Below are positions 1-58,693 of a stretch of 64,000 bases of DNA, piece by piece. Source of the DNA: Obrimoposthia wandeli (lineage: Eukaryota); contig CDROCS010005690.1 of the NCBI GenBank assembly GCA_977020255.1, positions 62,001 through 126,000 on the forward strand. Reading direction: 5' to 3'. The first letter of the stretch is position 1; every line of letters starts with the position of its first letter. The translations under genes and the position numbers were made by a program. The notes below the pieces were generated by a model. The model made no database searches, was not told where the DNA came from, and was given only the letters and a program-made list of their open reading frames with translations.

Positions 1-820
1 CACTTTCAAAAATACATTACGACTTTATTTCACAATGTATCAATGCTTTTATATCTTCAAAATACTTTATCAATAGTTTCCTCTGACTCTCACCAATAGT
101 ACGTATGCTGGCCTCGTGTGCTGCTGATCCGTCCTCGATATGTTTCCTCGGATGTCAGTTGTTGGCAGATTCAAGTTCGGAGGGCTGCTCGGTTTTCCGT
201 AGGTTGACTTGTCAATACGGCGTTTTTCGATTCCGAATGTTGTGAAATCTGAATTATCTGGCTGCACTTTTCGTTAGAACTCTGAATTATCTGGCTCCAC
301 TTTTTGTTAAAACTCTGAATTATCTGGCTCCACTTTTCGTTAAAATCTGAATTATCTGGCTGCACTTTTCGTTAGAACTCCTCCGCGACTCAATTCCGCA
401 GTCTACTTGTTGCTTGCTGTTCAGAGGTCCCGATCCCGTTAAGTGCTCTCTCATACACTGCTAATGGGTTTCTGTTGTCGTAGCTCCCAGACTGCTAATG
501 GGTTTCCAATGTACGACTAGTTCGACTTTCCTATCCGCCCCTCCTCTCAATAAACTTTTCGCAATAATCCTCTTAATTAGATTTTCGTTTTACTTAATTG
601 ATTCTTGTTTTTTTGGGGCCCTTAATAATAATTTAACCTCCCATTCATACAGCGCACTACACACGACCTTCGTGGTCCTTAATATTCAATTTACCTTTTA
701 ATTTTAATAATTTAATTCTAATATTCAATTTTATTTAATTTATAACCTTGCTTTCAAGGATTCTTATTTTACTATAATTTCGATTAATTATTTTATTTTT
801 ATCAATTCCTAAACCTAACA
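1..820 (-). repeat. LTR-like repeat, left copy (partial)
   Basis: Matches 11437-12771 and ends ...AAACCTAACA at 820. Has 4 units of the 32-33 bp repeat and lacks the block 12151-12330. Confidence 0.9.
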
Positions 821-1070
821 TATCTCGGGGGTTCTAAAAATGTTACGTCCCCGGAACGTATCGATTTTACTTTACTAGCCTCTGGGCTACTGATTTTAAG
901 TTCATCCCTACTAATTCAAGCATTCAGTACTCATCAACATGCCTAATGTTTAACAAAATTCGGTTTTTTAGTTGTTAATATAGTGAATAATTTGGACAAA
1001 GTCTCAAATATTCACTAATTTATTATACACAAAAATGGCTTTATAGATAAAGGAAAGGAGTAGGAAAGGA
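821..1070 (-). repeat. 250-bp LTR-adjacent block duplicated at 12772-13021
   Basis: Runs from TATCTCGGGGGTTCTAAAAATG to GGAGTAGGAAAGGA and appears identical in both places. Confidence 0.9.
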
Positions 1071-1091
1071 TGAATGTAACGTTATCAGTTG

Positions 1092-1627
1092 TCAATTGTT
1101 GATGGTAAGGTCTATTGTCACGGTTTGTTGGTTTCGATTGTCCAGATAGAGCATGACCTGCTCCAGGGGTAGGTCTGGAAAGGACGGAATGTCCCCGTTG
1201 TATAGGAGTAGCTGCTGGCTCAGGGTCAGGTGTGGGCTTTCGATAAATAGGTCGAAGTTCTGCCCGTTCAGCTCATGGTTCTCCATCCATAAGCGTCTGG
1301 CCTGTTGCCATGAACGGCAGTCGCGGCTAGACCGCTATCGCTCGCGGATGCCCAATTGTGTGTTGCGACGGCGCGCGAGGCACACAGAGCACTTACAGTG
1401 CTCGCCACCAATGCAGCTGGTGGGTGAGCGGGTGCCCTTGGATCGTCCACGGCACTGGAGAGTCCACTTGCAAAAGGGTGCCCGGCACATCGGGCATGTG
1501 ATGTGGCCGTGGGTCGAGCCTTGGCCCACGAATAGAGGCAGGACTCGTGGAATTTGTGTTGGCACCCGACAGGGGATGCCGACGCTGCCCAGATTTTCTC
1601 GAGGCAAATTGCACAAAGCATCTGCAC
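1092..1627 (-). pseudogene. RING-H2 protein 3 (frameshifted near 1520, nonsense TAG at 1335-1337)
   Basis: CAIC...CQHKFHESC in one frame joins CPMCR...CKCSVC in a second frame. That frame continues past a single TAG into ORF 1092-1286. Confidence 0.8.
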
Positions 1628-1964
1628 AATAATTACTCTTTAATTTGGGGTTCGATTGGGTTTAATATTAATTTACGAAATTAATATTTTAATTTTAATG
1701 TTATATTTTAATCCTACCGAATTCTGCTTTGATTTTAGGCATGTTTTTTCACATTCATACTAAGCATAAAAAATTGTCTTTTTGAGTTTCAGTCTTAATA
1801 ATTACAATTTCAAATAAACAACACACATAAAAATGGTAACGGTCATTTTACAGTTTCACAAGATTATACAATTATGATTACAATTATGGTAGCTAATTTA
1901 TCGCGGTATGCGATACACAGGGGTAGTTCATGATGTCATGTTTTAAGTCAAAAGTTACCTTCGG

Positions 1965-2270
1965 TTACTGCTGGCTGTTGGGCTGGCCTGTGCGTCGCTC
2001 CTCCACGCAGAACGAACACCAGCAGTCGCAGATGTTTTTCCAGCAGTGTACAATGGGTACCACTGCTTGGAGGCTGTCCCGGTTGTAGACATAGTGCACC
2101 GAGAAGGTTGCTCTGCACATCGGGCAGTTTGGGTAGTCGAGGGGATTGTTGTTGTTGGCGATTGGGATCCACGTCTCGAGGCATTCGACGTGGAACTGGT
2201 GGTCGCAGTTGTTGGGTTTGGTGTAGAGGTCCACGATGTTCTCGTAGCAGATGGAACATTCTCCAGACAT
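1965..2270 (-). CDS. RING-H2 (C3H2C3) E3 ligase-like protein 2
   Basis: CSIC-x13-CDHQFHVEC-x18-CPMCR; C-terminal CWKNICDCWCSFC. Confidence 0.9.
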   Translation of the reverse strand: MSGECSICYENIVDLYTKPNNCDHQFHVECLETWIPIANNNNPLDYPNCPMCRATFSVHYVYNRDSLQAVVPIVHCWKNICDCWCSFCVEERRTGQPNSQQ

Positions 2271-2330
2271 TACTGTGAGAGGGTTGATGTTGAATTTGGG
2301 CTCGATTGAGGACTGGTGGTTGTGTGATAT

Positions 2331-2630
2331 TTACACAAAAGTGGTCGGATTTTGTCGTTCTGACAGACAGTAGTAACACCAACATTCTCTCAAATTCTTC
2401 CAACAGAATATCACTTGTACATCTACATCCTCTTGGTTGGTTTCTAGTCTGATTAACCTTGTGAATTGTCTTCTGCATACAGGGCAACGAGGGTATGTCG
2501 GATAGGGAGTTTCTCCATATGTTCTGATCCATTTTGATAAACAATCCTCGTGGTGTAAATGATTGCAGGTTTCGGGTCTTGTTCTTCGTTCGGTTAAATC
2601 TTCCAAACATATTGGGCATTCTTCGGACAT
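2331..2630 (-). CDS. RING-H2 (C3H2C3) E3 ligase-like protein 1
   Basis: CPIC-x13-CNHLHHEDC-x18-CPVCR; C-terminal CWKNLRECWCYYC; paralog of 1965-2270. Confidence 0.9.
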   Translation of the reverse strand: MSEECPICLEDLTERRTRPETCNHLHHEDCLSKWIRTYGETPYPTYPRCPVCRRQFTRLIRLETNQEDVDVQVIFCWKNLRECWCYYCLSERQNPTTFV

Positions 2631-2755
2631 TCTAAATACATTATGACAATTAATTTCTACATGAGTTTTACATATTTCTACTTATTTGTACAATCGCTTC
2701 TAGATATTTCTACATATTTTTACACCCTAATTTATCTACAACCTCCTCTGACTTA

Positions 2756-4951
2756 TCATGTCTTGATGGGAGGCGGAGGTAAGGGTCGCAATTCCACTTC
2801 CTCCATTGTGGGTGTGTTACAGCATCGCAGTCCTTCGCATTTTCGTCGTATTCTTGGGCATACCTGGCTGCCTTTCACGCACACGACTGTCAATAGAACC
2901 GCTGCTGTTGACACTACTGCCATTCCAATTAGAGCATTGACCGCTGTTATTCCGCTGTCCGATGATTGGTAATCATACTTCATTTTGTTGTTTGTCGGTT
3001 TGAATGACGTTTCCATTGGTATTGATCGGTTTCCATGTATTATGTCCGATTTTCTAATAACTCGCGGATTTGGATATTTTGTTTTCGGTCCAACAGGTAT
3101 TCTTAATTGGGATTTGATATGATATTTGGGATCTAGTGAAATCGTTCCCTTCACTCTTGTCCTCTCAATAATTGTGCTTTGATTTCTGGGCTCGAGCTCT
3201 TTTCCTTTCACCTCTGTCTTTGTTATGATTACTTTTGGCTTCTCGGAATGACGTTTACTTCCGTTTACCTTTGCCTTCTTTTTGACTATGATTGGTTTTT
3301 CGGAATGACGTTTACTTCCTTTCACCTTTTCCTTTTTTATGACTATGATTGGTTTTCCGGGAATGATTTTCCTGGGTTTGATACTTATACCGAGTCCACG
3401 AAATCGACGTGTCTGGTATCTTAGAGTTATGTAGGATATTTCACCTGTTATTACTATGATTATGGTAGAGATCTCTCTAGCATTGCTGGGAATTCGGTTA
3501 CATAGACGTTCTGTATCAAAATGTGGTACTAACATTTGGTTTTGAATTTCGAATCTGATTCCACCATCTGGATTGGGACACGACACTGTTACTTTGTCAG
3601 TTTCTAACAATCTGAAGAATAATCTAACGGAATTCCATACGGTTTTACGTCGTCTACCTGTGATCATAATCCTGTCGACAACTTTCCAGATGCGCTCGTC
3701 GTTAGGTAATATTAATGACTTTGTTTGGATAAATTGAATAATCCGTTTCCTTTTTGATATTGTTATTCGTAGGTATAATACCTTTTCATGGTAGAATAAT
3801 ATCAGTCGGTAATAAAGTTTATGTTGGTCAATCTTTATTTTGATCTGGCGAATGACATACAATTTCTGATCGACATTTTCGGTTGCTGATGTTTGTAGGT
3901 GAATGTCTATTACGTAATTTGTTTTTATTAGAGGTATTTTTATGGATAACGCCCGTATCGTATCTTGTCTCCATTTACTGATCATGATCTCATAACCAGC
4001 CTCGGTCGTGGTGATTTGCATGATCAGCATGATTCCGATGATCGTCCGATTCCGAATCTCAGGAACTTCTCTGGAATAACTCAAGTTACTCATATAGTAC
4101 GGTCTTTCCTCGATATGTTCATATATCGTTGGCTGGTACTCTGGTGCTGGTTCATTTAGGAATGCTGGTCTTGGTATACTTGTGTTGAAGTTTTGTAAAT
4201 TCATTTGACCTGCTTGTCTTGCGAGATCATGACGTTTCTTTTTTGATCTCAACTCCATCTTTGTACAACAAAACAAGATGAGTAATATTAATATTATAAA
4301 TCCAATGATCAATGCCAGTATTGGATTAACCAATTCTAGAATACCATAACGTATTGCTGGTATCCCTTTACTCTTGATGGTTAATATTTTAAATTTATGT
4401 ACACTTTGGTTGGACATGTCACTGAGAAGTACTATTTTAGTTTGTCCAAATGTGTAATCTTCACATGTGACAACACTAACTCCATAATGTCCATTAAGTG
4501 TTTTCATTTCGGTCGCTGGGACTATACACATTCGTCCTGGACATCCTTTCACACACATGACCATTACGGCTTTACTTTGAGACGTCTTGATTATTTCTAG
4601 GGTGTTGTCTAGATTTCTCAAATGTAAATTATATCCAGGTAGCTTCATCAATTCAGCTTTACTGGCTGGAATGGCTTGTAGTACCAATCCAATTACTACT
4701 CCGTAGATCAATCCTTGTGCAACAGTGCACAGGGCCTTGATTGTCCTTTTGCAAAGGATTTTGATTATCATTCGTTTGAGAGACATCTGTTTCTGGTTAG
4801 GTCGTTTTGTTGTCTGTCGTTGTTTTGACATTTCTTCGATTCCAGTTTTTCCGATAATCAACTGTACCTGTTTACCTTGTATCATCAACTTTCCGAATCC
4901 ATTTTTGGCGGACAAACATGTTTTATGTCCTTCCATCGTTTCAATTATCAC
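2756..4951 (-). CDS. Multi-membrane polyprotein: two signal-peptide/ectodomain/TM units of unknown function
   Basis: 731 aa open frame. Signal-like segments GLIYGVVIGLVLQAIPASKA and TIIGIMLIMQITTTEAG; TM segments ILALIIGFIILLILILFCC and ALIGMAVVSTAAVLLTVVCV; Pro-rich C-tail PLPPPP. Confidence 0.7.
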   Translation of the reverse strand: MIIETMEGHKTCLSAKNGFGKLMIQGKQVQLIIGKTGIEEMSKQRQTTKRPNQKQMSLKRMIIKILCKRTIKALCTVAQGLIYGVVIGLVLQAIPASKAELMKLPGYNLHLRNLDNTLEIIKTSQSKAVMVMCVKGCPGRMCIVPATEMKTLNGHYGVSVVTCEDYTFGQTKIVLLSDMSNQSVHKFKILTIKSKGIPAIRYGILELVNPILALIIGFIILILLILFCCTKMELRSKKKRHDLARQAGQMNLQNFNTSIPRPAFLNEPAPEYQPTIYEHIEERPYYMSNLSYSREVPEIRNRTIIGIMLIMQITTTEAGYEIMISKWRQDTIRALSIKIPLIKTNYVIDIHLQTSATENVDQKLYVIRQIKIKIDQHKLYYRLILFYHEKVLYLRITISKRKRIIQFIQTKSLILPNDERIWKVVDRIMITGRRRKTVWNSVRLFFRLLETDKVTVSCPNPDGGIRFEIQNQMLVPHFDTERLCNRIPSNAREISTIIIVITGEISYITLRYQTRRFRGLGISIKPRKIIPGKPIIVIKKEKVKGSKRHSEKPIIVKKKAKVNGSKRHSEKPKVIITKTEVKGKELEPRNQSTIIERTRVKGTISLDPKYHIKSQLRIPVGPKTKYPNPRVIRKSDIIHGNRSIPMETSFKPTNNKMKYDYQSSDSGITAVNALIGMAVVSTAAVLLTVVCVKGSQVCPRIRRKCEGLRCCNTPTMEEVELRPLPPPPIKT

Positions 4952-5125
4952 TCTCTTACTTCCATACTAACGTGTTTTGATGACATCGCCGTCGAATATA
5001 TACGTCGGACCTTTTGTATCCGCATCTTTTTGTATTTCCCTCACAATTCGCCTTCTTCGCTTGCATCCGGCGAAAGTTGATGATATTCGGTCAAGTGTGC
5101 GCTGTCGGTCAGCTTCGTAGTCCAT

Positions 5126-5521
5126 TCATAATTGATTCAGTAATCTGTTTTGTGGATAAAATATCGCTTCATTCACTATGTTATCCTGAATCCTTTCATC
5201 TAGATACACAAGTACTTGGTTCGTTGGTCCATTCGGTCTCTTCATTTTCACAAACTGGAATCTTTTACTATCGGTTCTCATAGATCGGAGACATTTTCGG
5301 ATAAACCACACATCAATTAGTCCTATCAACACTAATAGCATCATCAGTGCCGGTGTATTGTACTGTATGATGTAGTTGTTGATTTCTTTGAACCATGAAC
5401 TATTTCCGTGGTCCGAGCCTATCTCTTGTGCTCCCGTTATCGGAATTAGACAACTTAACAAGCCTAGTGCTAGCAATCTTTGGTATTGATAGCTGGGAAC
5501 TGTTGTTGTAGCTTCATTTGT
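5126..5521 (-). CDS. Small type-I membrane protein
   Basis: Signal-like LLALGLLSCLIPITGA and TM ALMMLLVLIGLIDVWFI. In frame with the upstream DSP2 ORF across one TAA. Confidence 0.6.
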   Translation of the reverse strand, partial: TNEATTTVPSYQYQRLLALGLLSCLIPITGAQEIGSDHGNSSWFKEINNYIIQYNTPALMMLLVLIGLIDVWFIRKCLRSMRTDSKRFQFVKMKRPNGPTNQVLVYLDERIQDNIVNEAIFYPQNRLLNQL

Positions 5522-6100
5522 TTATCGTTGTTGCTTCCTTTTTTCGGAGTATTTCTCTATTTCTCGAACGAGTAACGGTTTGAATTCCGTATCTGGTCTA
5601 TTCTGTTTGATATAAACCATCGCTTCCTCTGGTGTATGACCATGGTACTCTACCAACAAGGATACACCTATGGTAGGAGCTAACATTGTACCTTTTTTCT
5701 GGTATATCAGAACGCCGTTTCCTTCTGTGACTTCGGCTTGGATGGTTTGAGTCAACTTCATCAGGTGTTGTTGTGCATCGTTTATCTCTCGATTGGAAGC
5801 ATGTATGTATCGAGTTGTGTCATCTTCAGTATGTTGACACAGACTGATTATCTCATTTCCGACTTCAACAATATTAATTACTCGGTTGATACTGTGGAAC
5901 TTTAATCCAGCAGTATCTATATCTCCTGGATGACATAGAAATACTTTTGGCATTATCTGCGTAATTTTGTCGACTCCAGCTAAGAATAAACCGGTCAACG
6001 ATAGTGCTTGAAGAAAATTCTTTTTCTTTGGATCCTCGGGGATGTCGTCCATCCGTCTCTGTTCTTGCAACATGAGTTGGTAATTTGACAATTGTCCCAA
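5522..6100 (-). CDS. C-terminal helix of DSP1 plus a second, catalytically dead dual-specificity phosphatase domain
   Basis: Starts (L)GQLSNYQ, the expected end of DSP1 after a frameshift near 6105. Then ITQIMPKVFL, INRVINI, VLIYQKKGTMLAPT (HCxxGxxR lost) and EAMVYIKQNRP. Confidence 0.75.
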   Translation of the reverse strand: MGQLSNYQLMLQEQRRMDDIPEDPKKKNFLQALSLTGLFLAGVDKITQIMPKVFLCHPGDIDTAGLKFHSINRVINIVEVGNEIISLCQHTEDDTTRYIHASNREINDAQQHLMKLTQTIQAEVTEGNGVLIYQKKGTMLAPTIGVSLLVEYHGHTPEEAMVYIKQNRPDTEFKPLLVREIEKYSEKRKQQR

Positions 6101-7740
6101 AAAATTAAGGTTGCAATACTTCTTCTTTCCTGTAGGTATTTCAGCGCTTCTAGTACCTGCATTCGTCTAGTCTTTATTAGATACGCTAATACTAGAGTTG
6201 CTGATCGGGAGATTCCTTTCTGACAATGTACCAACACTTTTCCTTGGTTTTGGAGTTCTCTGTGAAGTATCTCGTTTGTTTCTACGAACCATTCGAGAAG
6301 ATTAGCTTCCATTGAGTCTTTTACTCTTAATGTCATAGCTCTGATCGTCTGATATTGCGATTTGTGATTCATTGTAACATTGATCACGTATGTTATCCCT
6401 TGTTCCAACAGTTTCTTTTCGTCTGTTGCATCTTCCACATTTCCGAGGTATAACTTATCTGGAATGATCTCACTCATTGGTGGCATTAATTCTGACTCTT
6501 CAAGGTTTAGTCTTTCTAATCTCTTCTCTATTTGTTCGTCACATTCGTTCACTTCTCGCATAACTTCGAATATGTCTTCAATTCGGCTATTTGTTATCAC
6601 TCTGCCTACTATTAGGGCTGATTTTCCTTCTGGAATCTCGTCACTGTTATCGAAATCGGGTGCTTTTCCCATTTGGATTTCTGGTACGTTTGAAGTTTTC
6701 AGTTTCAAAAGAAATGGACAATTTGGTGCATCTCTTTTATGACGTTTCATTGGGTTTTCATTGTTCTCCCACTTTCTAAACTTTACTCTACACCATACGC
6801 ATCGTACTACTTCCCCATGACCATAACTACTTGTCGCGTTTAACATTTGTAAACCTGTTCTTGCCATTTTACGTGACATTTCTTTTGAATAGTACGGTTC
6901 TAGTGATCTTCGTCTATTTTTCTCGATTCTCAAGGGATCTTTTTCTGACAGATTCACATATGTTATTTTCCTCCTCGTCATAGCTTGTGGTCCGGAGTTT
7001 ACATCTTTGTAGTGAAGTATCGACTTTACTAGCGCTTCCTGTTTCCTATCTTGGTACGGATTTCCCATACGGAACATAGTGTATTTTTCCTTTTCGACTA
7101 TAGGTCCTCTCAACATTTTTATCTCACTCACTGAACTGTCGTTCTTAAAACTCTTGTTGTTTGGTAATATAATTATTCTTTCAAACATCCGTATTACGTC
7201 CATCCCAATCATGACTGGACTACCACAATCTGTGAATATTCTAGCATTTAACTGTAATGCTCTTCCATCGATATTTAACGAACATTTCAGTGTTCCTTCT
7301 GACACTACATCTGTACCATTCACGTTAAAAAATGTCTGTTTTCTAGGACATACTTTTCTTAATTCTTTTGATGACAATATTTCTTTACTCAATACTGATA
7401 CTGCAGATCCAGTATCAACTTCAGCAAGATATTCTCTTCCGTTCAGTGTTACTGCTACTTGTGGTGGAGCATTTGGATTCTCATTGGATATCCTAGACTT
7501 TAGAATTCTTCTAGAATTATCTTTTTTGTCTTTTTCCTCTGCTTGCGGAATCTCACTGTAGTTTACCTTAGGCCATCTTATCATTAAAATGCCTCTCTTG
7601 AATTTTTCCTTCTCTTCTTTTAGTTCCTTCATTGGATATAGGTTTAGCGCCACTTCTTCCTTGTCTGGTAACGGAATCTTTGGTTTTCCTGGTATCTTTG
7701 CATATTCTCCTGGGCTATCATTATCGTCGTCGTTGTCGTC
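5995..7740 (-). CDS. Retropepsin aspartic protease - BIR - dual-specificity phosphatase polyprotein segment
   Basis: AEVDTGSAVSVL and VMIGMDVI (protease, ~7165-7467); CVWC-x16-H-x6-C (BIR, ~6706-6927); SEIIPDKLYLGN and VLVHCQKGISRSATLVLAYL (DSP, ~6110-6483). The frame is open up to 7740, directly after the env TGA. Confidence 0.92.
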   Translation of the reverse strand, partial: DDNDDDNDSPGEYAKIPGKPKIPLPDKEEVALNLYPMKELKEEKEKFKRGILMIRWPKVNYSEIPQAEEKDKKDNSRRILKSRISNENPNAPPQVAVTLNGREYLAEVDTGSAVSVLSKEILSSKELRKVCPRKQTFFNVNGTDVVSEGTLKCSLNIDGRALQLNARIFTDCGSPVMIGMDVIRMFERIIILPNNKSFKNDSSVSEIKMLRGPIVEKEKYTMFRMGNPYQDRKQEALVKSILHYKDVNSGPQAMTRRKITYVNLSEKDPLRIEKNRRRSLEPYYSKEMSRKMARTGLQMLNATSSYGHGEVVRCVWCRVKFRKWENNENPMKRHKRDAPNCPFLLKLKTSNVPEIQMGKAPDFDNSDEIPEGKSALIVGRVITNSRIEDIFEVMREVNECDEQIEKRLERLNLEESELMPPMSEIIPDKLYLGNVEDATDEKKLLEQGITYVINVTMNHKSQYQTIRAMTLRVKDSMEANLLEWFVETNEILHRELQNQGKVLVHCQKGISRSATLVLAYLIKTRRMQVLEALKYLQERRSIATLIFWDNCQITNSCCKNRDGWTTSPRIQRKRIFFKHYR

Positions 7741-9527
7741 TCAATAGTTTCTTGGGTCTCGCATCATGGTTCTTGTTTGATGTTGCTCCTTCTTGAGGGC
7801 TCGCAACTCGTTCTCGTGATGATGGTGCATTAGATATTTTGCTAAAAATGGAAAACATCCAATTATAAGTTGCCAGGTGATTCTGGTTATCCTGTATAAA
7901 CTATACGTAGACAACACCTGGGCTATAATTACCTGCACAAATTTAATTATAACATAAATACCTATGATACCCGAAAATAATTGTCCTAAAACAAGGAATT
8001 TCCCCCACATCTTTCTAAGTGTCTGATGTGCTGCTTCCTTGAAATGACTTGGCGATAACAACATATCAAAATTCGCATATCTAGCTCCTGGCGGTAATGC
8101 TCGATGTACCATCTCCGTAAGTACTCTGGCCCTTTTTACTGGAAACATTATTTCGTTCCAGGCCGCTTTTAAGTCTTTTTCATTGTACAAACCTGCGTTC
8201 TCCATATTTTCTACCGCTTCGAATTTCATTTTTCCTTTAAGATTCGTCATTTTTATCATCTCTGGAGTTTTCGTTGGCTTTCGGTCAGGTAGCGTTATCC
8301 ATAGATCATTCGTCATCTGATATTCAGGTGCCATTATATTAGAGCAGCTGATTTCTTTAGTTGGAGTGTCTTTTGGAAGTATCATTCTCGTGATTGGTTC
8401 AACAAAGAGTTCTTTTAAATTATGCGTTACTGTCAATTCACTCGTACATCGGTTTGTTGTTCTCAACTGTACTTCTACTTTATTACACTTGTAAGTATAC
8501 AATACTTATCCCATGGTTTTAGCAAATACTCCTTCATCCAAGGGTAATATTGGTGCTACCATGTCTGGATTCGTAATAGCTAATGCTAACTTTGTTCTTA
8601 CGATCTCTTTGTTTAGCTGGCAATCTCTCTCGATCATCATCCGATATAACTGTTCCATTTGCATCAATTCTTTATGATAATAAAAATCAATTTTATTATT
8701 AAAATACGTGTGTAGCTGCATATCTCTAGGTTTTAGCTTGGTTTCTGCCAATGCTATTAATTCTCTAGACAAAACTATTCCTGGATAGTTTGTAGTACTA
8801 ACAGTCATTCCGCATCGCGCTTTGTTTCTCTTTTTAATAAATATCAATCCTTCTTTTGTTGATGTTGCCATTAACAGTGTAGGTGTCGCCGTCATAGGAA
8901 TTGGTCTTGTTTCATTATGAAATCCTTCTCCAACTTTATTATACAGGAACCCTTCTCCATCTTTATTATACAGGAACCCTTTTATTTTATTAAAGCTAAT
9001 TTCTTTCAAAAATACTAAAGAGCATTGTTTCGGATTCACGTGATACACAATTGTGGATTCACCTGTAAAACAAGATGCATCTGTCATTCTACATTCCGGA
9101 TACTTCATCATTCGTTGTGTCTTTTTATCAAAATTGGAGGTCCATGTTTTTAATTCGATCTGGTAAGTTACGTCCATTACTAACTCTGTTACTTTGATTC
9201 CACGCACGTTTTTTATTCCTCCGTCACAAGATCCATCAGGCCATCGTTGTCTTCGCAATCTCTCGGAAAAACCTCATGTGGTTTGTACGGTTTGGTAGGT
9301 GTGATTTCCGACATAAAACTTCTATGGCCACTATAGAATTCGTGATAACTTGAATGGACTGAACATTCTTTCACTTCTACTTGTATTTTATCAACATCCT
9401 GATACACAAAGTAGTTTTCAATACCTTTAACTTCTAATTTTGACGGTTGTGATTCTGGACAGTCTTCGCTGTCAAGCAGTGAATACTTTTTTTCCATCTT
9501 TGGTATGCTACAGTCGTATGCTATCAA
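7741..9527 (-). pseudogene. env: Envelope glycoprotein, chuvirus-G / herpes gB-like (class III) type; frameshift near 9245 and nonsense TAA at 8506-8508
   Basis: Mature N-terminus LIAYDC...YSLLDSEDC; CGMTVSTTNYPG; LHTYFNNK; DCQLNKEIVRTKLALA..NP; MG*VLYTYKC.KVEVQLR..CTSELTV..F..P.TR; C-terminal TM (LVLGQLFSGIIGIYVIIKFVQVII). Confidence 0.85.
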
Positions 9528-11096
9528 CCCTGATGCCTGTTGCATTCCTATGAACATTACTAACATCATCATCATCATCGTTGTGGAAATATTTGGTTGA
9601 TTGTTTCTTTCTTTCGGACGGTATTGTTTATTTTCCCTTTGACGATTCTCATGACATTGTTCGTCATCGTTTTCGTTCATTTCCACAATGGTTTTAGCGT
9701 AGTCACTTAATTTTGCCCAACCTCCGTTTTCGTCAATTCGTCTCTGCAATACATTCTCGATCAAATACATCGCTTCATTTATTCCTTGTTTGACTTCGTG
9801 AGGTTGGCTCGTTCGTTCCGTCAATTGGAAACATAGATATGTGATTGCTGTAATTAACTTTTTATTTGTAGTCTGGTTTCCACATAATCTCGCTAAAACT
9901 TCACCGTCATAAAATCTATCTATTGATGCATGGTATACATGATTCGCAGTCATTCTCTTTACTGCAGACATTTGTGATCTAACTGCTTTGGTCAAATTGT
10001 CTGTTATATCGGTTGTTTCATCTTTGTACATTTTGAACAACTTCGGCTTCACTTGCCTGAGAATTCCCGTAAGTATATCTTTACTACTTGGCGCTTCCGA
10101 ATTCATATCACCTCTGATATCTTCATTTCGCTCCGTACTATACTGCTCCAATGACGCTGCTAGCTGTCCAATGCTTAGATGTCTCTCCTCATCAGTTTGT
10201 GGTGCAGTTAGAACATTTCGTAATATACTTCCGTCCTTTCTAGGTCTTCCAGGTCCTCTTCGAAAATACTGATACTCAGTTTGATTCTCTCCTGGATCAT
10301 ATGGTTCACCATTATACTGTATCTCTTGACTTGGTCCTTCTTCATGGCCAATCTCTTCGTTTTGTCGCATCATCTGCTCTGCTTGTCTATCTCTGTATGC
10401 AGCATGCCAAATTGGTGAATCCAAATCTACAATTTCGGAGATTTCGTCTTCTCCTACTAGTTGGGTTACGTTTTCGTTTTGTCTCACTTGGTTGGCTATA
10501 TCCGTGACTTCATCTTGTCCGGTTTGAATTATCTCTGGTTCTGGTGGTACTTCGACCACCGGAGTCGTCAACTCATTTTCTAGTTCCACGTCTTGTAATT
10601 CAGCTACGTACGGTTCTGGTGTGGATGTCTTGTTCCAAGCTTCAGCTACATCATTATCTCCGCTTTCGCTTGAACTGTCTAAAATTTCTATAGGCGTTTT
10701 TATCATTTCTAATGCAGAGTTTAATATCTCCGTTAATCCTTCATTATCTACTAACTCTTGACGTCCTACAGTGATGACATCAATTTTTTCCTCTAATTCA
10801 TTTCCTATCGGATATCCACACTCGACTGGTACGTCCTCATCATCTAGTGATCTCCCTTTATAATGGAACAACATATTCATTTCATCAATTTCAAGTTTCT
10901 CGGCCAACTTTTTTCGAATAGTTTTCATCGTTTGATACACGTTAAGTTTTTCATGTATTATCTGTCCGGAAATTAATCGAAGAGAAATTTTCATCGTTCC
11001 TTTTTGGTTTGATCTCTGCACGTAACGACCATATCCTTTCAATAATCCTCGTGATACTTCTTTGTAACCCAAGTTATCATGACTATGTTTAACCAA
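9213..11096 (-). CDS. Ubiquitin/SUMO-like domain - AT-hook - Bcl-2-like domain - signal peptide - env N-terminus
   Basis: MKISLRLISGQII...LFHYKGRSLDDEDVP (UBL, ~10767-10994); RRGPGRPRK (AT-hook); YLIENVLQRRIDENGGWAKL (BH2-like); MMMMMLVMFIGMQQASG followed by LIAYDC. Confidence 0.8.
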   Translation of the reverse strand: MVKHSHDNLGYKEVSRGLLKGYGRYVQRSNQKGTMKISLRLISGQIIHEKLNVYQTMKTIRKKLAEKLEIDEMNMLFHYKGRSLDDEDVPVECGYPIGNELEEKIDVITVGRQELVDNEGLTEILNSALEMIKTPIEILDSSSESGDNDVAEAWNKTSTPEPYVAELQDVELENELTTPVVEVPPEPEIIQTGQDEVTDIANQVRQNENVTQLVGEDEISEIVDLDSPIWHAAYRDRQAEQMMRQNEEIGHEEGPSQEIQYNGEPYDPGENQTEYQYFRRGPGRPRKDGSILRNVLTAPQTDEERHLSIGQLAASLEQYSTERNEDIRGDMNSEAPSSKDILTGILRQVKPKLFKMYKDETTDITDNLTKAVRSQMSAVKRMTANHVYHASIDRFYDGEVLARLCGNQTTNKKLITAITYLCFQLTERTSQPHEVKQGINEAMYLIENVLQRRIDENGGWAKLSDYAKTIVEMNENDDEQCHENRQRENKQYRPKERNNQPNISTTMMMMMLVMFIGMQQASGLIAYDCSIPKMEKKYSLLDSEDCPESQPSKLEVKGIENYFVYQDVDKIQVEVKECSVHSSYHEFYSGHRSFMSEITPTKPYKPHEVFPRDCEDNDGLMDLVTEE

Positions 11097-11428
11097 TTCT
11101 GCTCCACTTCTTCCAATCTGTGCACTTTAATTGTTTGCAATTTGGCCAAAACTTCTGGAGCTTCACTCGTTTCATCTAACGGTTGATTCAACGTCTCCTT
11201 AGCTTCACTAATTATCTTTTTTACATTTTCCATACTCGTAGCATTTCTTGCTGCTTCTATGTGATCAGTCATAGGTTGTGCGTTACACGTTTTCTCTATT
11301 GGTGTCTCATACGCTTCTAGCATTCGGTTTATTAAATCATTCATCTCCTCTCTCGAGTGTAGACTTTTTCGTGTTTCGACAACGTAGATGAATTCGCCAT
11401 CTTTGTGTGTGTATATCAAATATATCAA
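11039..11428 (-). CDS. N-terminal ORF of the cargo region, unknown function; probably frameshift-linked to 9213-11096
   Basis: 129 aa helical-looking ORF overlapping the next ORF. A candidate ATG at 11400 would join this frame if a 2-nt AG duplication were removed. Confidence 0.45.
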   Translation of the reverse strand: MIYLIYTHKDGEFIYVVETRKSLHSREEMNDLINRMLEAYETPIEKTCNAQPMTDHIEAARNATSMENVKKIISEAKETLNQPLDETSEAPEVLAKLQTIKVHRLEEVEQNWLNIVMITWVTKKYHEDY

Positions 11429-11726
11429 TGCTTTTACACTTTCAAAAATACTTTACGACTTTATTTCACAATGTATCAATGCTTTTATATCTTCAAAATA
11501 CTTTACGACTTTTATTTCAATCAATACTTTTATATCTTCAAAATACTTTACCAATAGTTTCCTCTGACTCTCACCAATAGTACGTATGCTGGCCTCGTGT
11601 GCTGCTGATCCGTCCTCGATATGTTTCCTCGGATGTCAGTTGGCAGATTCCAGTTCGGAGGGCTGCTCGGTTTTCCGTAGGTTGACTTGTCAATACGGCG
11701 TTTTTCGATTCCGAATGTTGTGAAAT

Positions 11727-12165
11727 CTGAATTATCTGGCTGCACGTTTTGTTAGAACTCTGAATTATCTGGCTCCACTTTTCGTTAAAACTCTGAATTA
11801 TCTGGCTCCACTTTTCGTTAAAATCTGAATTATCTGGCTGCACTTTTCGTTAGAACTCTGAATTATCTGGCTCCACTTTTCGTTAAAATCTGAATTATCT
11901 GGCTGCACGTTTTGTTAGAACTCTGAATTATCTGGCTCCACTTTTCGTTAAAACTCTGAATTATCTGGCTCCACTTTTCGTTAAAATCTGAATTATCTGG
12001 CTGCACTTTTCGTTAGAACTCTGAATTATCTGGCTCCACTTTTCGTTAAAATCTGAATTATCTGGCTGCACTTTTCGTTAGAACTCTGAATTATCTGGCT
12101 GCACTTTTCGTTAAAATCTGCCAAATCTGGCTGCACTTTTCGTTAGAACTGACAAATCTGGTCCT
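11727..12165. repeat. 32-33 bp tandem array (TCTGAATTATCTGGCT(G/C)CACTTTTCGTTA(G/A)AAC)
   Basis: About 12 intact and 2 degenerate units; 4 units in the left copy (248-379). Confidence 0.95.
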
Positions 12166-12177
12166 ATCGCGGGTCTT

Positions 12178-12211
12178 ATTTATACCCGTAGTGTATTGCC
12201 ACGCTTTTATA
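12178..12211 (-). promoter_or_regulatory. Candidate TATA boxes of the LTR promoter
   Basis: Minus-strand TATAAAA (12211-12205) and TATAAAT (12184-12178), ~800 bp upstream of the first ORF. Confidence 0.45.
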
Positions 12212-13021
12212 AGTGCTTTTTGTTTGCTGCAGAGATTCTACAAGAGTAAATAATGGATAATCTCAAATCCACTTTACCTCCGGTTTCCTAGACAGTCGCT
12301 GTCCAGACGCTAATGGACTTCCTGTTTGTTCCTCCGCGACTCAATTCCGCAGTCTACTTGCTGCTTGCTGTTCAGAGGTCCCGATCCCGTTAAGTGCTCT
12401 CTCAGACACTGCTAATGGGTTTCTGTTGTCGTAGCTCCCAGACTGCTAATGGGTTTCCAATGTACGACTAATTCGACTTTCCTATCCGCCCCTCCTCTCA
12501 ATAAACTTTTCGCAATAATTCTCTTAATTAGATTTTCGTTTTTCTTAATTGATTCTTGTTTTTTTGGGGCCCTTAATAATAATTTAACCTCCCATACATA
12601 CAGCGCACTACACACGACCTTCGTGGTCCTTAATATTCAATTTACCTTTTAATTTTAATAATTTAATTCTAATATTCAATTTTATTTAATTTATAACCTT
12701 GCTTTCAAGGATTCTTATTTCACTATAATTTCGATTAATTATTTTATTTTTATCAATTCCTAAACCTAACATATCTCGGGGGTTCTAAAAATGTTACGTC
12801 CCCGGAACGTATCGATTTTACTTTACTAGCCTCTGGGCTACTGATTTTAAGTTCATCCCTACTAATTCAAGCATTCAGTACTCATCAACATGCCTAATGT
12901 TTAACAAAATTCGGTTTTTTAGTTGTTAATATAGTGAATAATTTGGACAAAGTCTCAAATATTCACTAATTTATTATACACAAAAATGGCTTTATAGATA
13001 AAGGAAAGGAGTAGGAAAGGA

Positions 13022-13139
13022 AATTTAATCTAAAATCTTATATTCAATTTTATCTAATTTATAACCTTGCTTTCAAGGATTCTTATTTCACTATAATTTC
13101 GATTAATTATTTTATTTTTATCAATTCCTAAACCTAACA
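13022..13139 (-). repeat. Extra LTR-terminal fragment (118 bp)
   Basis: Matches 12661-12771, including the CCTTGCTTTCAAGG hairpin and AAACCTAACA end; flanked by ATAT (13140-13143). Confidence 0.9.
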
Positions 13140-13169
13140 ATATTACTGTTAATGTTTATAATATCAGAA

Positions 13170-13390
13170 AGAACAATAATGAACTAAATTGGATAATATA
13201 TATTGTTTCTGAATAATGGGACAATAAACTGTTTTGAATAATGATATTGGTTTCTGAATAATGGAACAATAAACTGTTTTGAATAATGATATTGGTTTCT
13301 GAATAATGGGACAATAAACTGTTTTGAATAATGATATTGGTTTCTGAATAATGAGACAATAAACTGTTTTGAATAATGATATTGGTTTAA
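13170..13390. repeat. 45-bp minisatellite
   Basis: About 4.5-5 copies of TGAATAATGATATTGGTTTCTGAATAATGGGACAATAAACTGTTT. Confidence 0.9.
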
Positions 13391-14349: not shown

Positions 14350-17101
14350 ATTGTGCTAAAAGAAAAATTGAAACAAGCAGATCAAAATAAATATATATTT
14401 TTAAAGTCAAAGAATATTTTTAGATCAAATAGTTGTTGATATAGCTCACAAGAAGATAGAAAGATCTAAAAATAAATATATGTTGGCAGTAATCGATCTA
14501 TTTTGTAAACTGTTATCACTATGAGCAACAACAAAAGAAGATAAAATAAAAATTACTAAAACACACTAGACAAATTGGATATATAAATTTGAAAACTTAA
14601 GAGTATTTTAACAGAACGAGGACGAATATTTACTGTAAATATATTTTCAGAATTGGCTATAAAAAATTTGTATTGAACAGGAGCTTACAGCACCATAAAA
14701 AGTGTTGGGGTTTCTATATGAAACTTATAGATCCTCTTGAATGTGGAGGGCCCTAACGTGAGTTCTATAGAAGCAGGTCTTAAGGATTGTTGTGGCCTAC
14801 TTAATGCTATGGTTGCCTGTCTCTATTCTTATCTGAAGGTTTGTTGTTTTGTCTTAATCTGAAGAGTTTAGAACAATGCTTCTAGTTGTAGGAAATCGTT
14901 TATTATTAACACACTAGACTAACACGAAGCAATACGTTTAAGTACGTATTTCTAAAAAGTTACAGTAAAATTCCTAAGACTTCCGTAAGTCTCTACACAA
15001 GTGGGGATGAACCACGTATCGATTTTAGTTTAGGTTTGCTTGGCGCTAGAGTCTTTACTCTAAAAATGCGGACAATTTTAGTTTATAGATTTTTACAGAG
15101 CTGTTGCTCTAAAATAGGGAATAAGTTTACAGAGCTGTTGCTCTAAAATTATGGCTTTTAACGAAAACTAGAGTCAATATTTTTCAATATAACTTTATAC
15201 CTTTTTCAAAACTAAATCAATACCTCAACACACTTTATATCTTTTTCACGAAAATTAGGATAAATACTTTTTCACGAAAATTAGGATAATTACTTCAATA
15301 TTACTTTATTCCTTTTTTCAAAACTAGAATCAATATTTCAAATATACTTTATATCTTTTTCACGAAAACTAAGATAATTACTTTTTCGCGAAAATGAGGA
15401 CAATTACTTCAATATTCCTTTTTCAAAACTAATATCAATATTTCAAATATACTTTATAGCGCTCACTTCTCACCTTTCTCAATCCGTGATATGATTTCGT
15501 CCGGTTGTGAGATTGGTACCGTGATGAGGGGAACCCTTTGTCCTCCGTATCCGCTGGAGCTCGTGCTCGTTGTCACTCGGATTGCTTTGTAACTCGTCTT
15601 GCGCTCTGAGATCTATTTAGCTCCTGTTTTAGGCGGCGGCTGAGTTGGTGTCTGCGAACCTTTATCGAAGCTGTGTTCCTCGATCCGATTTCCCAGATTT
15701 CTGCTTCCCGGTTTTCTTGAGTCAGCTAATTTGTGTTTGTGACTTTCTGACTTCTTCTTTTTATATGTTGTTCGGCTCCTAGACGAAAATTAACAATGCA
15801 CTTAATTCTAAGTGCTTCTTACTGGGATCTGGTTAATTGACTCCTGTCTGCTTCTAAGTGCGATTCCCGGCACTGAGTGATATCCGCCGCTTAGCTCCCA
15901 CGTGCGGCTAATGGACTCCTAATAGATTTTTCGTTGACTTTCTAAATTGTCCCACGTGTGACTAATGGACTTCCTAATAGATTTTCTGAATCTGCTGCTT
16001 AGCTCCCACGTGCGGCTAATGGACTTCCTAATAGATTTTCTGAAATAATTGATTGATTTCGTTTACTGTAATAATTACCTCCTTAATTGAATTTGCATGA
16101 TCGGACTTTTCTTCTTGTTTGTTAATCTCTTTTTTGGGGGCCTTTTGTTTCCAAACCTAACTTCTTATATACCCACGCATCTCACACGACCTTTGTGGTC
16201 CTTAAATATTTAATCTTATTTTAACTTTAATAATTTTAATTTCGATTTTAAAATTTATTTAATTCTAACCTTGCGCTTTCAAGGATTTTTATTTTACTAT
16301 AAAATCAATTAATTATTTAATTTTAGTCAAAACCTAATCCTAACAAAAGCATCAAGCTAACAGTTTAGCAGAATGAGTTATACGGTAAGATATATGATTG
16401 TTATGACAATAGCATCTACTAACAAAGTAAAATGGTGACACGATTTATTGCCACACATTGAATTTTCTATAAATGCAACAGTAAATAATTAATGAAAACA
16501 TTCACCGTTTGAGATCAATTATGAAAAAAAAGCATCAAGTGCAACAACAAACAATATAGAATATATTATTCAAATGTAAGGAAAAACCTACAAGTCTCAG
16601 CTGATAAGTTAGACAAATTAGTTAATGAAAAACAGAGGGAAAAGGATATTTGAAGTAAATGAAAAGGTGCTTTTTAAAAAGCACCCAATTAAAAGAAGCA
16701 AGAATGGTGACCAGTATGAAGGCCCATATAGAATAATATATTTTTTGAGTCCACGACTGTTATCAATTCAGTTTCCAAAATGAATTCTCCCCAGGACAAT
16801 CGAGTGACTGAAGAAGTGCAAGTTTGAATAGTGAAGGGGAGAGTTATGTAATCAGAAACCAGAAATAACTTATCGGGAATATTTGTTTATAAAAACTTAT
16901 GTAAACATGTATGATATAAACTGTGTAGTGGAATCTAATTTTTGAATTATGTTTACGATATAAAACATAACTGACTGAAAACATGGTTACTCTAAAACGG
17001 ATACCAAAAATCATATTATGAGAAACTAATATGTTCGGCTATTAATTAGGAATTGTCTAAACCTATATTGAAATCTCAGTCCCATATTTTTTAGAATTAC
17101 A
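14350..17101 (+). mobile_element. Degenerate Gypsy integrase region with PPT and 3' LTR, split by a solo LTR
   Basis: NKYMLAVIDLFCKL near 14480; P*K/HQANSLAE is restored across the insertion; PPT GAAGGGGAGAG at 16833-16843; LTR TGTAAT...ATTACA at 16847-17101. Confidence 0.7.
14703..16345 (-). mobile_element. Solo LTR (same superfamily as the cargo element)
   Basis: Termini TGTTGGGG...CCTAACA with 4-bp TSD AAAG (14699-14702 and 16346-16349). Shares ACGTATCGATTTT, GACC-TTTGT-GGTC and CCTTG-CGCTTT-CAAGG motifs with the element-1 repeats. Confidence 0.9.
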
Positions 17102-21500: not shown

Positions 21501-24500
21501 TGTTGCATCAACAACAGTTTCCGGACGATCTTGATTCTCAGTTCAAAGGCCTGTGTTGCCGTAATATATATTTTAAAAATTGAGTTTTCTAACGTTTACT
21601 GTGCTTTCTCCCAGTGTTTATTTGCGTTTCCGATAGCCTCTGACACACTATAGAACGTTCCAACAAAGAAGATTGAACCCCAGGAAAGTTTTCTTGTCCC
21701 AAATTGCTCAATATGGCGCTATGGTGGCTGACTGGCACACACGCTGTTGTTTTGGTATCACCAGCGGATGTGTATGTAGATCGAGTCGAGTGTTGGCGTG
21801 AAGAAGCTGTTGTTCACATGATGTATGTTCAGCTAAGATATAAACTATCTAGAGTATAGAACGGTGCGAAACTGAGTCTCGGTGGTCTGCTATGTAGGAC
21901 ATCGATGAAAATGCAGTCAGTGAGCTATTTTAGTATCAAAGTAACAATGACTCTACGATGTCTGTATTTATTTAATACCGTGCACATTTCAATGGTGCTG
22001 AAGCCACATAAGCAGCACCAGAAAAATTGCAGATTGATATTGTAAATGGAGACAGTTTTAAAACAACAATCTTCATCCGTGGACGACAACTAAGTCATTG
22101 CGATTTTGTTTTGCCACTTGAATAAGTTGAAAGTGAGTACGAGTAAAATTTCATCAATATAATGTCAGCTGTATAAAACTACAATGAGTGAGACTGGCAA
22201 TTGCTATGTATTTAGCCAGCTCTATATAAAAACGCCACCAATCACATCACGTCTGGAATTGTAAGTGGCGGGCAGAAAGTGATGTGACCGGTAGGCTTTA
22301 ACAAAAACACACAAAAGGTAAACTTTAATGCATAAAAATTTTCCCAAGTAGGAAACAGAAACACACACTGATTACACAATAACATCATAGGTCATTCTTT
22401 GGAATGCTGTAATCCAGTTTGTCTCTGGTTCTTGTGTGTCAAGTATGTCCCGTGAGGGTTTGTTTGCAGGGTTCTGCTCTGTAGGTATGAACTGTACCTC
22501 GATTCGCTTAATTGTAACCAACATTTGGACTGCCACAATTATCCACCACTCCTGTATATCGCTGGGAATTCTCTTGGTTTTAGTCGTCCAAACTAAACCT
22601 TGATTATCGCATAGAATTGTACATCCGGTTCTTCCCATCCAAAGCCTTAGCCTCCTGAATAAGAATAGTTCTCTCTGGGATTTTGAGTGCTGCATGGACT
22701 GTTCGCATCTGTGGCCCATAACTCTGTATATGGGATCTCGTTCCATTTCCATGTAGATGCCTGTCTTTGTAAAAGGTTAAAACACTTCTCACGTAAATCT
22801 TTATGCAAATAATTTTCCGTAAAAGGCCATCTCAATACGTTTGCCACATAATTTGCGTATCCTATGGCCTGTGGTGAATAATCTTTCTCTAAAACTAACT
22901 TTTATATGTACTCCACTTTTCATTTGACAAGCTCACTTGTTGTGTCATCAGGTGTATCAGTTGTGTCATACCACAATATAGAACTTGGCGAGCAGGCGTC
23001 AATTGCGATTTTTCCAAATTTACTTGTGGGTTCCATTTATCTAAAAAGGTTTTAAGATTTTCCCACATAGGGCTTTCCATAGGCGCCACGATTAAAATGT
23101 CATCGATGTGAACATGAATTAACGGAATCTTCCAAAACCTTTGAAATATTTTCATTATTGTCGTTAATGTCCATTGTAAGATGGCCGGACTTTGCCTCAG
23201 GCCCATCGGCAGCCTTGTAAATCGGTAATATTGGCCGAGCAATATTTTTTAAAGTTTAGCGCCATCGCCTACTATCGCCAACTTTGAGGACCACAGGTTT
23301 AAATGAAGATGGACTTTTGTTTATGTTCTATTTCCAATTTTAAAAATTTAAAGGAAACTAATTTAATGAATTCCTCAGGAGTTGTTCAGAGATTTATCCG
23401 GAGTTATCTAGAAGCAAAAATGTTGGACATAATTGAATATAGCTTTGAAGCAAATTTGTCTTTGAACGTACTTTAAGTAGACTACAGTTGCACGAATTGC
23501 CGTCGTCAGCAACGAATTCCGAGAGATTCGTGAATTATCACAGTTTCTCGTTACCCACGCTACTTTTGTTACAACACTTAATCACCCTATCAGTGTCGTT
23601 GGTTCACGTGCGCTATCGAGTATCAGTTTTCAAGTAATTTCCAACGGGATTGTTTTCAGCTATTTGCAGAACTACATCTGTCTGCTTCCATATGTCTATA
23701 AATCATTTTATTTAACATGATATACAGTCGGTTTATAAAGTCTTTACGAAGGTTTTCTTTAATGAAAAAAATTAACATATGTCCGGATGAAAGATTTTTT
23801 AAGATAAATAAATCGAAAAAAATTAAACATTTAAATTAGTATGAAAAATCTTAAACTTATTACTCGTCAAGACCTCTTTTGAAAGTGGGTGCTCCAACAA
23901 CTTTAGCCACATGAAAATCTTCAAAAAGACATAGATTTTGTCACCCTATTTGTACTGAAGTAGTACGCAACATTGGCGAAACATTTTGGGCGATTGGGAG
24001 TGTCTGTGATGCCTCAAGCAATAGACGACCTCGATCTCTGACGAAAATGTAGAAAGAATCGTAACTGTTGCAGGGGACATTCAACAGACTGTCACTCGGA
24101 ACTGCACCAACAAGTTCAATCTCTTTGTAGATCATAATCCAAAAATCACCTATGAGAAAGATTTTGAAAGAATATCTCAAGTGGCGAACGTATGGCATTC
24201 GAATTCTTCATGACCTGAAGGAGAAAGGCTATCGAGTTAAATTTACCATATGGATCCTCTCAAGAATAACTGATCATTGACTATTTTATCATTCATTGTT
24301 TTTTCCTGATGAGGCCCATTTCCCGTCAAGATGAGACAACACTCCACATAACGAGAAACGTGGTTTTATTATACCATCTGTTTGGAAAACATTTCCATCA
24401 AATCTGGTCACAATGTTCTCCTGATTTGGCTCCGCCAGACTATTCCTTATGGGCAGCTCTCAAAGCTAGTCTATGAACAACAACCATAAACAATTTTTGC

Positions 24501-44149: not shown

Positions 44150-44900
44150 AATATTTTCTAGAAAATGCAGGTCTCCATGTCAGTAAAAATAAATACAGGA
44201 CGTCATTTCACAATGTAACAAATGTCAATCAATAGATCCGACACCTTGTCATTGGGAAAAAAGACAACTTTCAGTTAAGAAAAACTGGCTCAGATTAGCA
44301 ATCGATGTTACTAAATACATGAATACAAAGTTTTTAACTATCGTGGATTGCGGACCATCAAGATTCTGTATATGGAGAAGAATCAGCAGAGGAGATATGT
44401 GATCAACTTGGTAATATAATTTTCGAAAGAGGACCTCCATATTAAATAATTGGATAAAAACATCTCATTCAAGTCAAAAAAGATGTCAGATCTATGCTCA
44501 AAATGGAATATTTTATTAAATTATAGAGCAGTAAATATACCAAGCGGTAATGGTATTGTTGGGCTAAACCATCGATCGGTGAAAACAACGGCCTCCAGAT
44601 CAAACTGTTCAATCCACGAAGCTGTCTATTGGATCAATGCATATCCTAATGTTCTACAGCACTCTCCCCTAAAAAATATTTATAGCTACAAACCTCGATT
44701 ACAATTCGTGGCTCCAAAGAAAGATGCAGTAGTATTAAATAACAAATTTAAAATCGATTCTAATGTATGGATTAAAACAGGATGTAATCAAAGGTGTTTT
44801 GAGAGCTGGTCTCCAGAAAGAATCGTCAGACCTATTAGTCTTCAGAAATATTTGATAAAAATTAAAGGAGATGAGTCTATCCGTCACATAGCAGACATAA
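44150..44900 (+). mobile_element. Gypsy integrase remnant
   Basis: LAIDVTKY, FLTIVDCGPSRF, IFERGPP, SGNGIVGLNHRSVK, EAVYWINAYP across broken frames. Confidence 0.75.
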
Positions 44901-44924
44901 GATCACGTTTGCTTATTATGTGTG

Positions 44925-44975
44925 CCAATTTTCATGTAGCTCTGGCGCTTAGCGTCGGAGCTACATGAAAATTGG
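44925..44975. repeat. Perfect 18-bp inverted repeat hairpin
   Basis: CCAATTTTCATGTAGCTC (44925-44942) pairs with GAGCTACATGAAAATTGG (44958-44975). Confidence 0.9.
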
Positions 44976-45295
44976 TAAAATAAAAATCGCAATTTCCCAA
45001 CCTCAGTTTGTGGCTCTGTATATAATATAGTTAAGTATCGCTACATAATGAATATATTTATTTCATCGCTTCGCTTAGATTCAGTGACACTTTCAAGAAA
45101 TACCGATTATCGTGAAACGTATAAAACAGATTTCGAAGGTAACGCTTATGCTTTGGCTTATACGTAATCTATTATTCGGAATTTGGGTCAACTAAATAAA
45201 AATATAAATAATTGTATTTCTTTCAATGAGTTTAACTTTCACTGTCCTTTGTTCACATTTGTTTTGGCATCAGAAAAATGGAAATAAATATGAAA

Positions 45296-54756: not shown

Positions 54757-54818
54757 TTTTAATAAAATTTTGATTTTTTCGTTATAAACAACAGGATTTG
54801 CTGCAAATTTAGATAATT

Positions 54819-58672: not shown

Positions 58673-58693
58673 TTTGTTTTCTTAAATGTATTG

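Follow-up and report, generated by a model that had tools for sequence, protein, structure and literature searches.

Burro and GYPSM1 are giant gypsy-type long terminal repeat (LTR) retrotransposons of planarians. Burro polyproteins have been described as containing ubiquitin-like, BCL2, mononegavirus-like envelope (env), protease, reverse transcriptase (RT), integrase, BIR, and RING parts, and the position of env ahead of pol in Burro has been called a first (PMC6431247). Burro is also the leading case of a retrotransposon-captured antiapoptotic gene that aids host stem cells, with the BIR/RING region of Burro1 reported to protect these cells against apoptosis (cited in PMC13465017), and in planarians JNK is a known trigger of apoptosis after wounding (PMC4055413). 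We describe a pair of dual-specificity phosphatase (DSP) domains, DSP1 and DSP2, in a 64,000-nucleotide stretch of the Obrimoposthia wandeli assembly GCA_977020255.1 (contig CDROCS010005690.1, positions 62,001 to 126,000 of the forward strand), hereafter called the window, in whose coordinates all positions are given. An earlier note, made from the letters alone, had proposed that an active and a catalytically dead DSP arose there by duplication within a mobile element and damp stress or immune signaling. Our overall reading, to which we assign a probability of about 0.6, is that DSP1, resembling a mitogen-activated protein kinase (MAPK) phosphatase (MKP), and DSP2, an ancient pseudophosphatase, are antiapoptotic cargo of a Burro-like retroelement.

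DSP1 resembles an MKP and is broken in this copy

A sequence check of DSP1 found both an HCX5R P-loop and a candidate general-acid Asp. The P-loop is the HCQKGISRS motif that the earlier note had read, on the minus strand in an open reading frame (ORF) at 5995-7740 (His at 6228; the other catalytic residues are in Table 1), while the Asp lies 31 residues ahead of the Cys, a spacing identical to that of Asp213 and Cys244 in MKP7 (PMC4802042). DSP1 retains 20 of the 23 covered columns in the highly conserved set from the reference domains, and its top solved-structure matches in a PDB search are DUSP10/MKP5 (1.4e-17). Judged by these features, DSP1 resembles the catalytic domain of an MKP, although its subfamily is not fixed, since its identity to outside DSPs is only ~30 to 40%. 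Pfam gave no match to a rhodanese kinase-binding domain, either for the ORF as a whole or for the 81-residue stretch that precedes DSP1.

The last helix of DSP1 lies in a different frame from the rest of the domain. The frame that leads into DSP2 begins NLNFLGQLSNY..., a segment that PDB phmmer (domain 2) aligned with the helix at the C terminus of DUSP28; the 26-residue tail alone returned no PDB match. LNFL at the start of this helix is a motif of the FXF type with Leu first, as in MKP5, and its exact form is carried by 0 of the 23 reference domains. Such motifs, FNFL in MKP7 and with Leu first in MKP5, dock JNK without a rhodanese domain; the second Phe aligns the active site, and the motif is required to block apoptosis (PMC4802042). 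The frame change at ~6112 falls within DSP1 and severs this helix, so that DSP1 can be called active by motif only, and the earlier description of it as an active enzyme is wrong for the present copy. The frameshift had also been placed between the two domains, but DSP2 proper starts at ~5962, ~50 codons past it. A programmed frameshift within DSP1 was considered and is unsupported, with 0 canonical slippery heptamers near ~6112. As its frames read, the present copy cannot make a whole DSP1, and DSP2 is severed from the polyprotein frame. This copy has decayed, and neither domain is likely to be produced from it in working form.

DSP2 lost its catalytic residues long ago

Both its sequence profile and its predicted alpha/beta fold identify DSP2, in the minus-strand ORF 5522-6166, as a domain of the DSP family. 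It matches Pfam DSPc at an E value of 3.2e-6, under the curated cutoff; its top PDB phmmer match is DUSP28 (E = 6e-4); and it obtained an Atlas features score of 0.95, with 10 of the 10 top family matches DSP-like. An AlphaFold2 (AF2) model guided by a 7-row alignment of DSPs reached a mean confidence (pLDDT) of 77 and matched MKPs in Foldseek (TM, ~0.7; Z, ~15), among them MKP-4 (Z, 15.6; root mean square deviation, 2.7 over 135 residues). The model also matches many viral DSPs, at 11 to 20% identity, which attests to no more than a common fold.

Where the P-loop should stand, DSP2 reads YQKKGTMLA, with Tyr (5704), Gln (5701), and Leu (5683) in place of His, Cys, and Arg. The loss of Cys and Arg claimed in the earlier note is thereby borne out, and to it can be added the general-acid position, absent from that note, which holds Asn (5794). 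No CX5R occurs anywhere in DSP2. The register behind these assignments is firm: the ungapped alignment over ~60 columns scored 22.8 versus -8.4 for the next best placement (seven shifts tried), and a P-loop register shifted by one residue was rejected at that lower score.

The age of these losses can be judged from the divergence of the element's terminal repeats, which differ at 10 of 932 aligned bases (1.07%). To turn the DSP2 codons into codons for Cys, Arg, and Asp would take at least three, two, and one substitutions, respectively, a sum of at least six. Under a rough neutral model without indels, such catalytic changes together with a 196-codon frame free of stops had a joint chance no higher than 1.2e-5, whichever of the 9 divergences was tried. 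When compared with 20 of the 23 reference domains (the other 3, being fragments, were dropped), DSP2 retains 27 of 31 hydrophobic core columns, as counted on a fitted alignment, in agreement with the earlier statement that it keeps the fold motifs. Of the 26 highly conserved columns it retains only 9, and of the seven active-site columns only the Gly. Because at least six changes stand against a repeat divergence of 1.1%, with the core kept and the frame open, DSP2 is best taken, in line with the earlier note, as an old pseudophosphatase and not as a recent loss. Within the reach of one sequence, these comparisons show that Asp, Cys, and Arg had gone from DSP2 well before the present copy came into being and that the fold pattern was kept, as would be the case in a domain retained for its fold.

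The pair lies in an env-bearing, Burro-like element

By its sequence organization, the cassette that holds the DSP pair is an LTR-type retroelement with an env; it spans ~13 kb and is bounded by repeats (Table 1). The cassette runs in the order ubiquitin-like, weak Bcl-2-like, fusion env, protease, BIR, DSP1, DSP2, membrane ORFs, and three RINGs. Its minus-strand path of ~2,790 codons changes frame twice and is interrupted by five in-frame stops, a number of stops close to the 2.5 to 5 expected from postinsertion decay. Within env, the breaks are a frame change at ~9213-9273 and a stop at 8506-8508, and its end is a stop at 7741-7743. Direct repeats at 1-1070 and 11437-13021, ~10.4 kb apart, are 98 to 99% identical, and together with env and the retroviral-type protease they support the claim that the pair is carried by a mobile element. 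The BIR domain matches NAIP, DIAP1, and XIAP in PDB; for the protease the search gave a weak DDI1 match only (E = 0.58), and for an env piece no real match. Downstream of DSP2, the 131-amino-acid (aa) and 736-aa pieces have one and three hydrophobic segments, respectively.

TABLE 1 Features of the element and its DSP pair in window coordinates
Feature	Position	Strand	Evidence or remark
Upstream terminal repeat, LTR-like	11437..13139	minus	TGTTAG start at 12771; duplicated 250-bp segment; 107-bp partial start at 13139; tandem arrays
Ubiquitin-like domain, start of long reading path	10815..10982	minus	Pfam ubiquitin 5.6e-4
Possible Bcl-2-like region (weak)	9717..9905	minus	Pfam Bcl-2 top match, E = 0.053
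Env-like Monjiviricetes-type fusion glycoprotein, three pieces	7744..9581	minus	PF24664, E = 1e-10, 4e-18, 8e-46, colinear with profile
Retroviral-type aspartic protease	7189..7458	minus	DTG at 7416; Pfam gag-asp_proteas 5.5e-6
BIR domain, in frame with protease and DSP1	6709..6930	minus	Zinc ligands present; Pfam BIR 1.2e-10
DSP1, predicted catalytic core	6112..6480	minus	Pfam DSPc 1.3e-29; Asp 6318, Cys 6225, Arg 6207; frame broken at ~6112
DSP1 C-terminal helix, then linker	5969..6112	minus	MKP5-type LNFL motif; same open frame as DSP2
DSP2, putative pseudophosphatase domain	5525..5968	minus	Asn, Tyr, Gln, Leu at Asp, His, Cys, Arg positions; without FXF motif
Downstream ORFs in DSP2's frame, no family	2756..5521	minus	Stops 5126-5128, 4967-4969
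Three small RING-finger ORFs, third broken	2331-2630, 1965-2270, 1268-1621	minus	Pfam zf-RING_2 1.8e-10, 7.7e-9, 1.7e-6
Downstream terminal repeat	1..1070	minus	Cut by window start

The element's ORFs gave no Pfam match to RT, RNase H, or integrase, and only 86 codons separate protease and BIR. A tblastn search with three RT/integrase pieces from the window hit nothing in the element, and no CCHC gag knuckle was found in six frames of 1-13200. Ankyrin, dUTPase, and MATH domains were likewise not found in the element; there were 0 Rfam matches and 0 tRNAs, and NCBIfam was uninformative. The element would therefore seem to be a nonautonomous or deleted derivative without gag, RT, and integrase. 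Its order of ubiquitin-like, BCL2 (at the weak score of Table 1), env, and protease parts with BIR downstream is that of Burro. No Burro sequence turned up in our protein searches, and the likeness rests on domain order; since three defining features are missing, we call the element Burro-like and not a member of Burro.

Origin of the DSP pair

Internal duplication, the origin suggested in the earlier note, did not emerge from our comparisons. DSP1 and DSP2 are 20% identical and have no similarity at the DNA level, and they score 7 bits against each other versus up to 77 and 42 bits, respectively, against outside DSPs. They were sisters in 0% of bootstrap trees from sets of 25 and 20 rows and in 64% of those from a third set. 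Sisterhood was not rejected by the approximately unbiased (AU) test, however (P = 0.22 and 0.083), and the rows attracting DSP2 in the trees had been chosen as its best matches; after their removal, the pair grouped as weak sisters (65/65). DSP2 forms a very long branch. Separate capture of the two domains is consistent with the low identity, the bit scores, and their placement apart in two of three trees. It has to contend with the AU results and the 65/65 grouping, and the adjacent in-frame placement would be explained most simply by duplication followed by fast divergence. We regard separate capture as quite possible, at odds short of even; on this sequence evidence, internal duplication is neither shown nor rejected.

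Alternative explanations

Could DSP2 be a functionless relic, decayed in the present copy or during passive copying of a nonautonomous lineage? The element is visibly decayed and lacks replication genes, DSP2 is a very long branch, and a one-residue register shift would need only two substitutions to explain the loop. The shifted register is the one that scored -8.4, however, and a relic would have to accommodate at least six changes at nine catalytic-codon sites against 1.1% repeat divergence, an open frame with its core retained, and key residues kept in protease, BIR, and DSP1; we therefore hold decay to be distinctly improbable. Scarcely better placed is a trap of the kind attributed to STYX-type pseudophosphatases in the earlier note, in which DSP2 would hold phosphorylated MAPK in its dead pocket and compete with host phosphatases or effectors. 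STYX does compete with DUSP4 for ERK2 (PMC10211241), and two lysines in the DSP2 loop could bind anions. STYX proteins, however, retain G-I-S-R and with it the phosphate-binding Arg (PMC8269279), whereas DSP2 has G-T-M-L, without Arg or Ser and without an FXF docking motif at its helix start, which makes such a trap improbable. It is rather improbable, too, that the break in DSP1 is an assembly error and that the locus encodes a whole protease-BIR-DSP1-DSP2 protein. The copy is young, given that its repeats are 99% identical, and conserved residues are kept in both halves of DSP1, as an assembly error would predict; six other interruptions in the element, as in ordinary decay, the want of a canonical slippery site near the break, and the stop at 7741-7743, which lies upstream regardless, speak for a real one. 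Finally, the element may be unrelated to Burro, whether as a separate env-bearing lineage or as a viral insertion with converged cargo. In favor of this are the lack of any RT, integrase, gag knuckle, or ankyrin found, the size of 13 kb versus >25 kb, the weak Bcl-2 match, and a likeness judged without Burro sequence. Env directly before protease, after ubiquitin-like and BCL2 parts, was first described in Burro (PMC6431247), however, and BIR follows in both, so that we consider independence from Burro unlikely.

Several further results weigh against an MKP-like phosphatase and an old pseudophosphatase as cargo of a Burro-like element. Relatives of the locus were scarce: none of 478 candidates among longer proteins was a copy or close relative of DSP2, and a search of 1.84 billion representatives returned six matches at 23 to 28% identity, all with CX5R and none a close relative. 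For the protease-BIR region, 0 of 3,539 candidates was a relative, and for the DSP1 region the 10 of 226 candidates at 29 to 39% identity were generic, none with a BIR (one match of this search was excluded from all comparisons). An exact lookup for other copies returned 0 of 10, and as no second copy was found, selection on DSP2 is read from a single sequence. The count of retained core columns depends on the fit of the alignment. The structure prediction put forward in the earlier note as a check gave a DSP-like fold in the guided model, but the single-sequence AF2 model of DSP2 was poor (pLDDT, 42), with no Foldseek match reaching an E value of 0.001 and its weak matches mostly to DSPs; because the model is poor without an alignment, the structure is not independent evidence. 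The Bcl-2-like region has no support from PDB or Atlas. Near the repeats, neither a primer-binding site nor a polypurine tract was clear by eye, and the repeats may be a tandem duplication instead of an LTR pair. Lastly, the host exons described below, at 57 to 60% GC, lie above what would be expected for Schmidtea.

Proposed role and significance

Intact copies of the element would make a BIR-DSP1-DSP2 product that the element's protease either cuts or leaves whole. DSP1 might then dock JNK/p38-type kinases via its LNFL helix, with no need of a rhodanese domain, and dephosphorylate them. Together with the BIR, the RINGs, and the possible Bcl-2 module, this damping of JNK/p38 would keep the carrier cell from entering apoptosis under stress. 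DSP2, presumably unable to hold phosphate, could serve as a structural, regulatory, or substrate-selecting partner, as does the D2 domain of receptor protein tyrosine phosphatases (PTPs). The stress half of the signaling role proposed in the earlier note fits the MKP5 likeness, the LNFL motif, the BIR, and the RINGs; nothing in the locus points to STATs or immune signaling. A bolder version, which we offer as tentative and somewhat doubtful, is a spreading family of env-bearing, replication-defective Burro-like elements with a complete antideath kit, in which an MKP-type JNK/p38 phosphatase of captured origin, joined to a dedicated pseudophosphatase under selection and expressed in host stem cells, would tune JNK-dependent apoptosis.

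If true, this tandem of a phosphatase and a pseudophosphatase would be the first encoded by a retrotransposon, and the element might be a Burro-like one from outside planarians. An MKP-like DSP would add control at the kinase level, a third point next to the caspase-level BIR/RING cargo and the mitochondrial Bcl-2-like cargo, and a pseudophosphatase without Cys, Arg, and Asp in a multicopy element would provide a natural series for the study of dead-domain upkeep. The value of the locus is limited by its being one broken copy and by the chance that Burro papers already list DSP domains.

Other features of the element and window

The region at 9717-9905 (minus strand) may be a highly diverged Bcl-2-like domain where Burro has BCL2. 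The 736-codon ORF at 2756-4966 (minus strand) has a 57-bp repeat and a Lys/Ile-rich stretch, with no family found. The RING ORFs are intronless, and two of them share 35 of 95 residues; values of 0.36 versus 0.79 for the GC content at third codon positions (GC3) hint at separate histories.

The TGTTAG repeat start is found again at 13139 and 16345 and, in a variant form, at 54756. At both element ends, the repeat takes in ~250 bp upstream of the TGTTAG start, and these extensions and the 107-bp partial start suggest a tandem arrangement with a deleted neighbor; another copy of the element may continue left of the window start. Diverged relatives of the repeat start lie at 15100-16345 and 53285-54756 (minus strand), with identities of 83% and 70%, respectively. 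Tandem arrays follow both of them, and they are possibly solo repeats of related families.

Outside the element, the window has the content of animal DNA. An intron-split RhoGAP host gene, which we take to be FAM13-like, occupies 18130-39700 (plus strand), with widely spaced exons; its later exons have 57 to 60% GC, versus 25 to 29% in the introns. Within it, at 22372-26471 (minus strand), are two RT-bearing fragments, presumably DIRS-like, with inverted repeats at 24763-24905 and 26217-26471. Decayed gypsy-type RT and integrase fragments lie on both strands at 44450-48067, and a block at 54813-62351, which we assume to be Polinton-like, encodes a protein-primed type B polymerase, an integrase, and an A32-like ATPase.

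Comparison with known systems

The element shares with Burro/GYPSM1 ubiquitin-like and possible BCL2-like parts and a mononegavirus-type env before the protease, BIR and RING cargo, a long polyprotein path, and candidate long terminal repeats. It differs in size (~13 kb versus >25 kb, and for the internal region ~10.4 kb versus up to 25 kb) and in that no gag, dUTPase, RT, RNase H, integrase, ankyrin, or MATH was found in it. It also carries two DSP domains, and the word "phosphatase" occurs 0 times in the Burro review (PMC6431247).

DSP1 is like MKP5 and MKP7 (DUSP10 and DUSP16) in its CX5R, its Asp 31 residues upstream, and the LNFL-type motif that opens its final helix. Unlike them it has no rhodanese domain, is fused to BIR and protease, and is broken in frame in the present copy. 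DSP2 shares with STYX, MK-STYX (STYXL1), and STYXL2 a DSP fold in which the catalytic Cys is replaced, and with MK-STYX an aromatic residue in place of His. The STYX group keeps G-I-S-R, whereas DSP2 is without Arg, Ser, and the general-acid Asp; DSP2 also stands in tandem behind a catalytic DSP and in a mobile element.

In CDC14, encoded by a host gene, the dead A domain comes first and a catalytic B domain of the same fold second. Phosphatases on mobile genomes are found among the viral DSPs and PTPs (poxvirus VH1, baculovirus PTP, giant-virus DSPs, and polydnavirus PTPs), and inactive bracovirus PTPs exist; these are stand-alone genes of DNA viruses, unlike the fused DSPs of the element. 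In the D1-D2 tandems of receptor PTPs, as in DSP1-DSP2, one chain unites a catalytic domain with a dead one that shares its fold (PMC10211241), but those tandems are host genes with classical PTP domains. We found no retrotransposon-encoded DSP or pseudophosphatase in the literature searched; primary Burro annotations, outside that search, may list DSPs. Tandems of a live and a dead domain and the apoptosis cargo of Burro are both known already, and it is their combination in one element that appears to be new.

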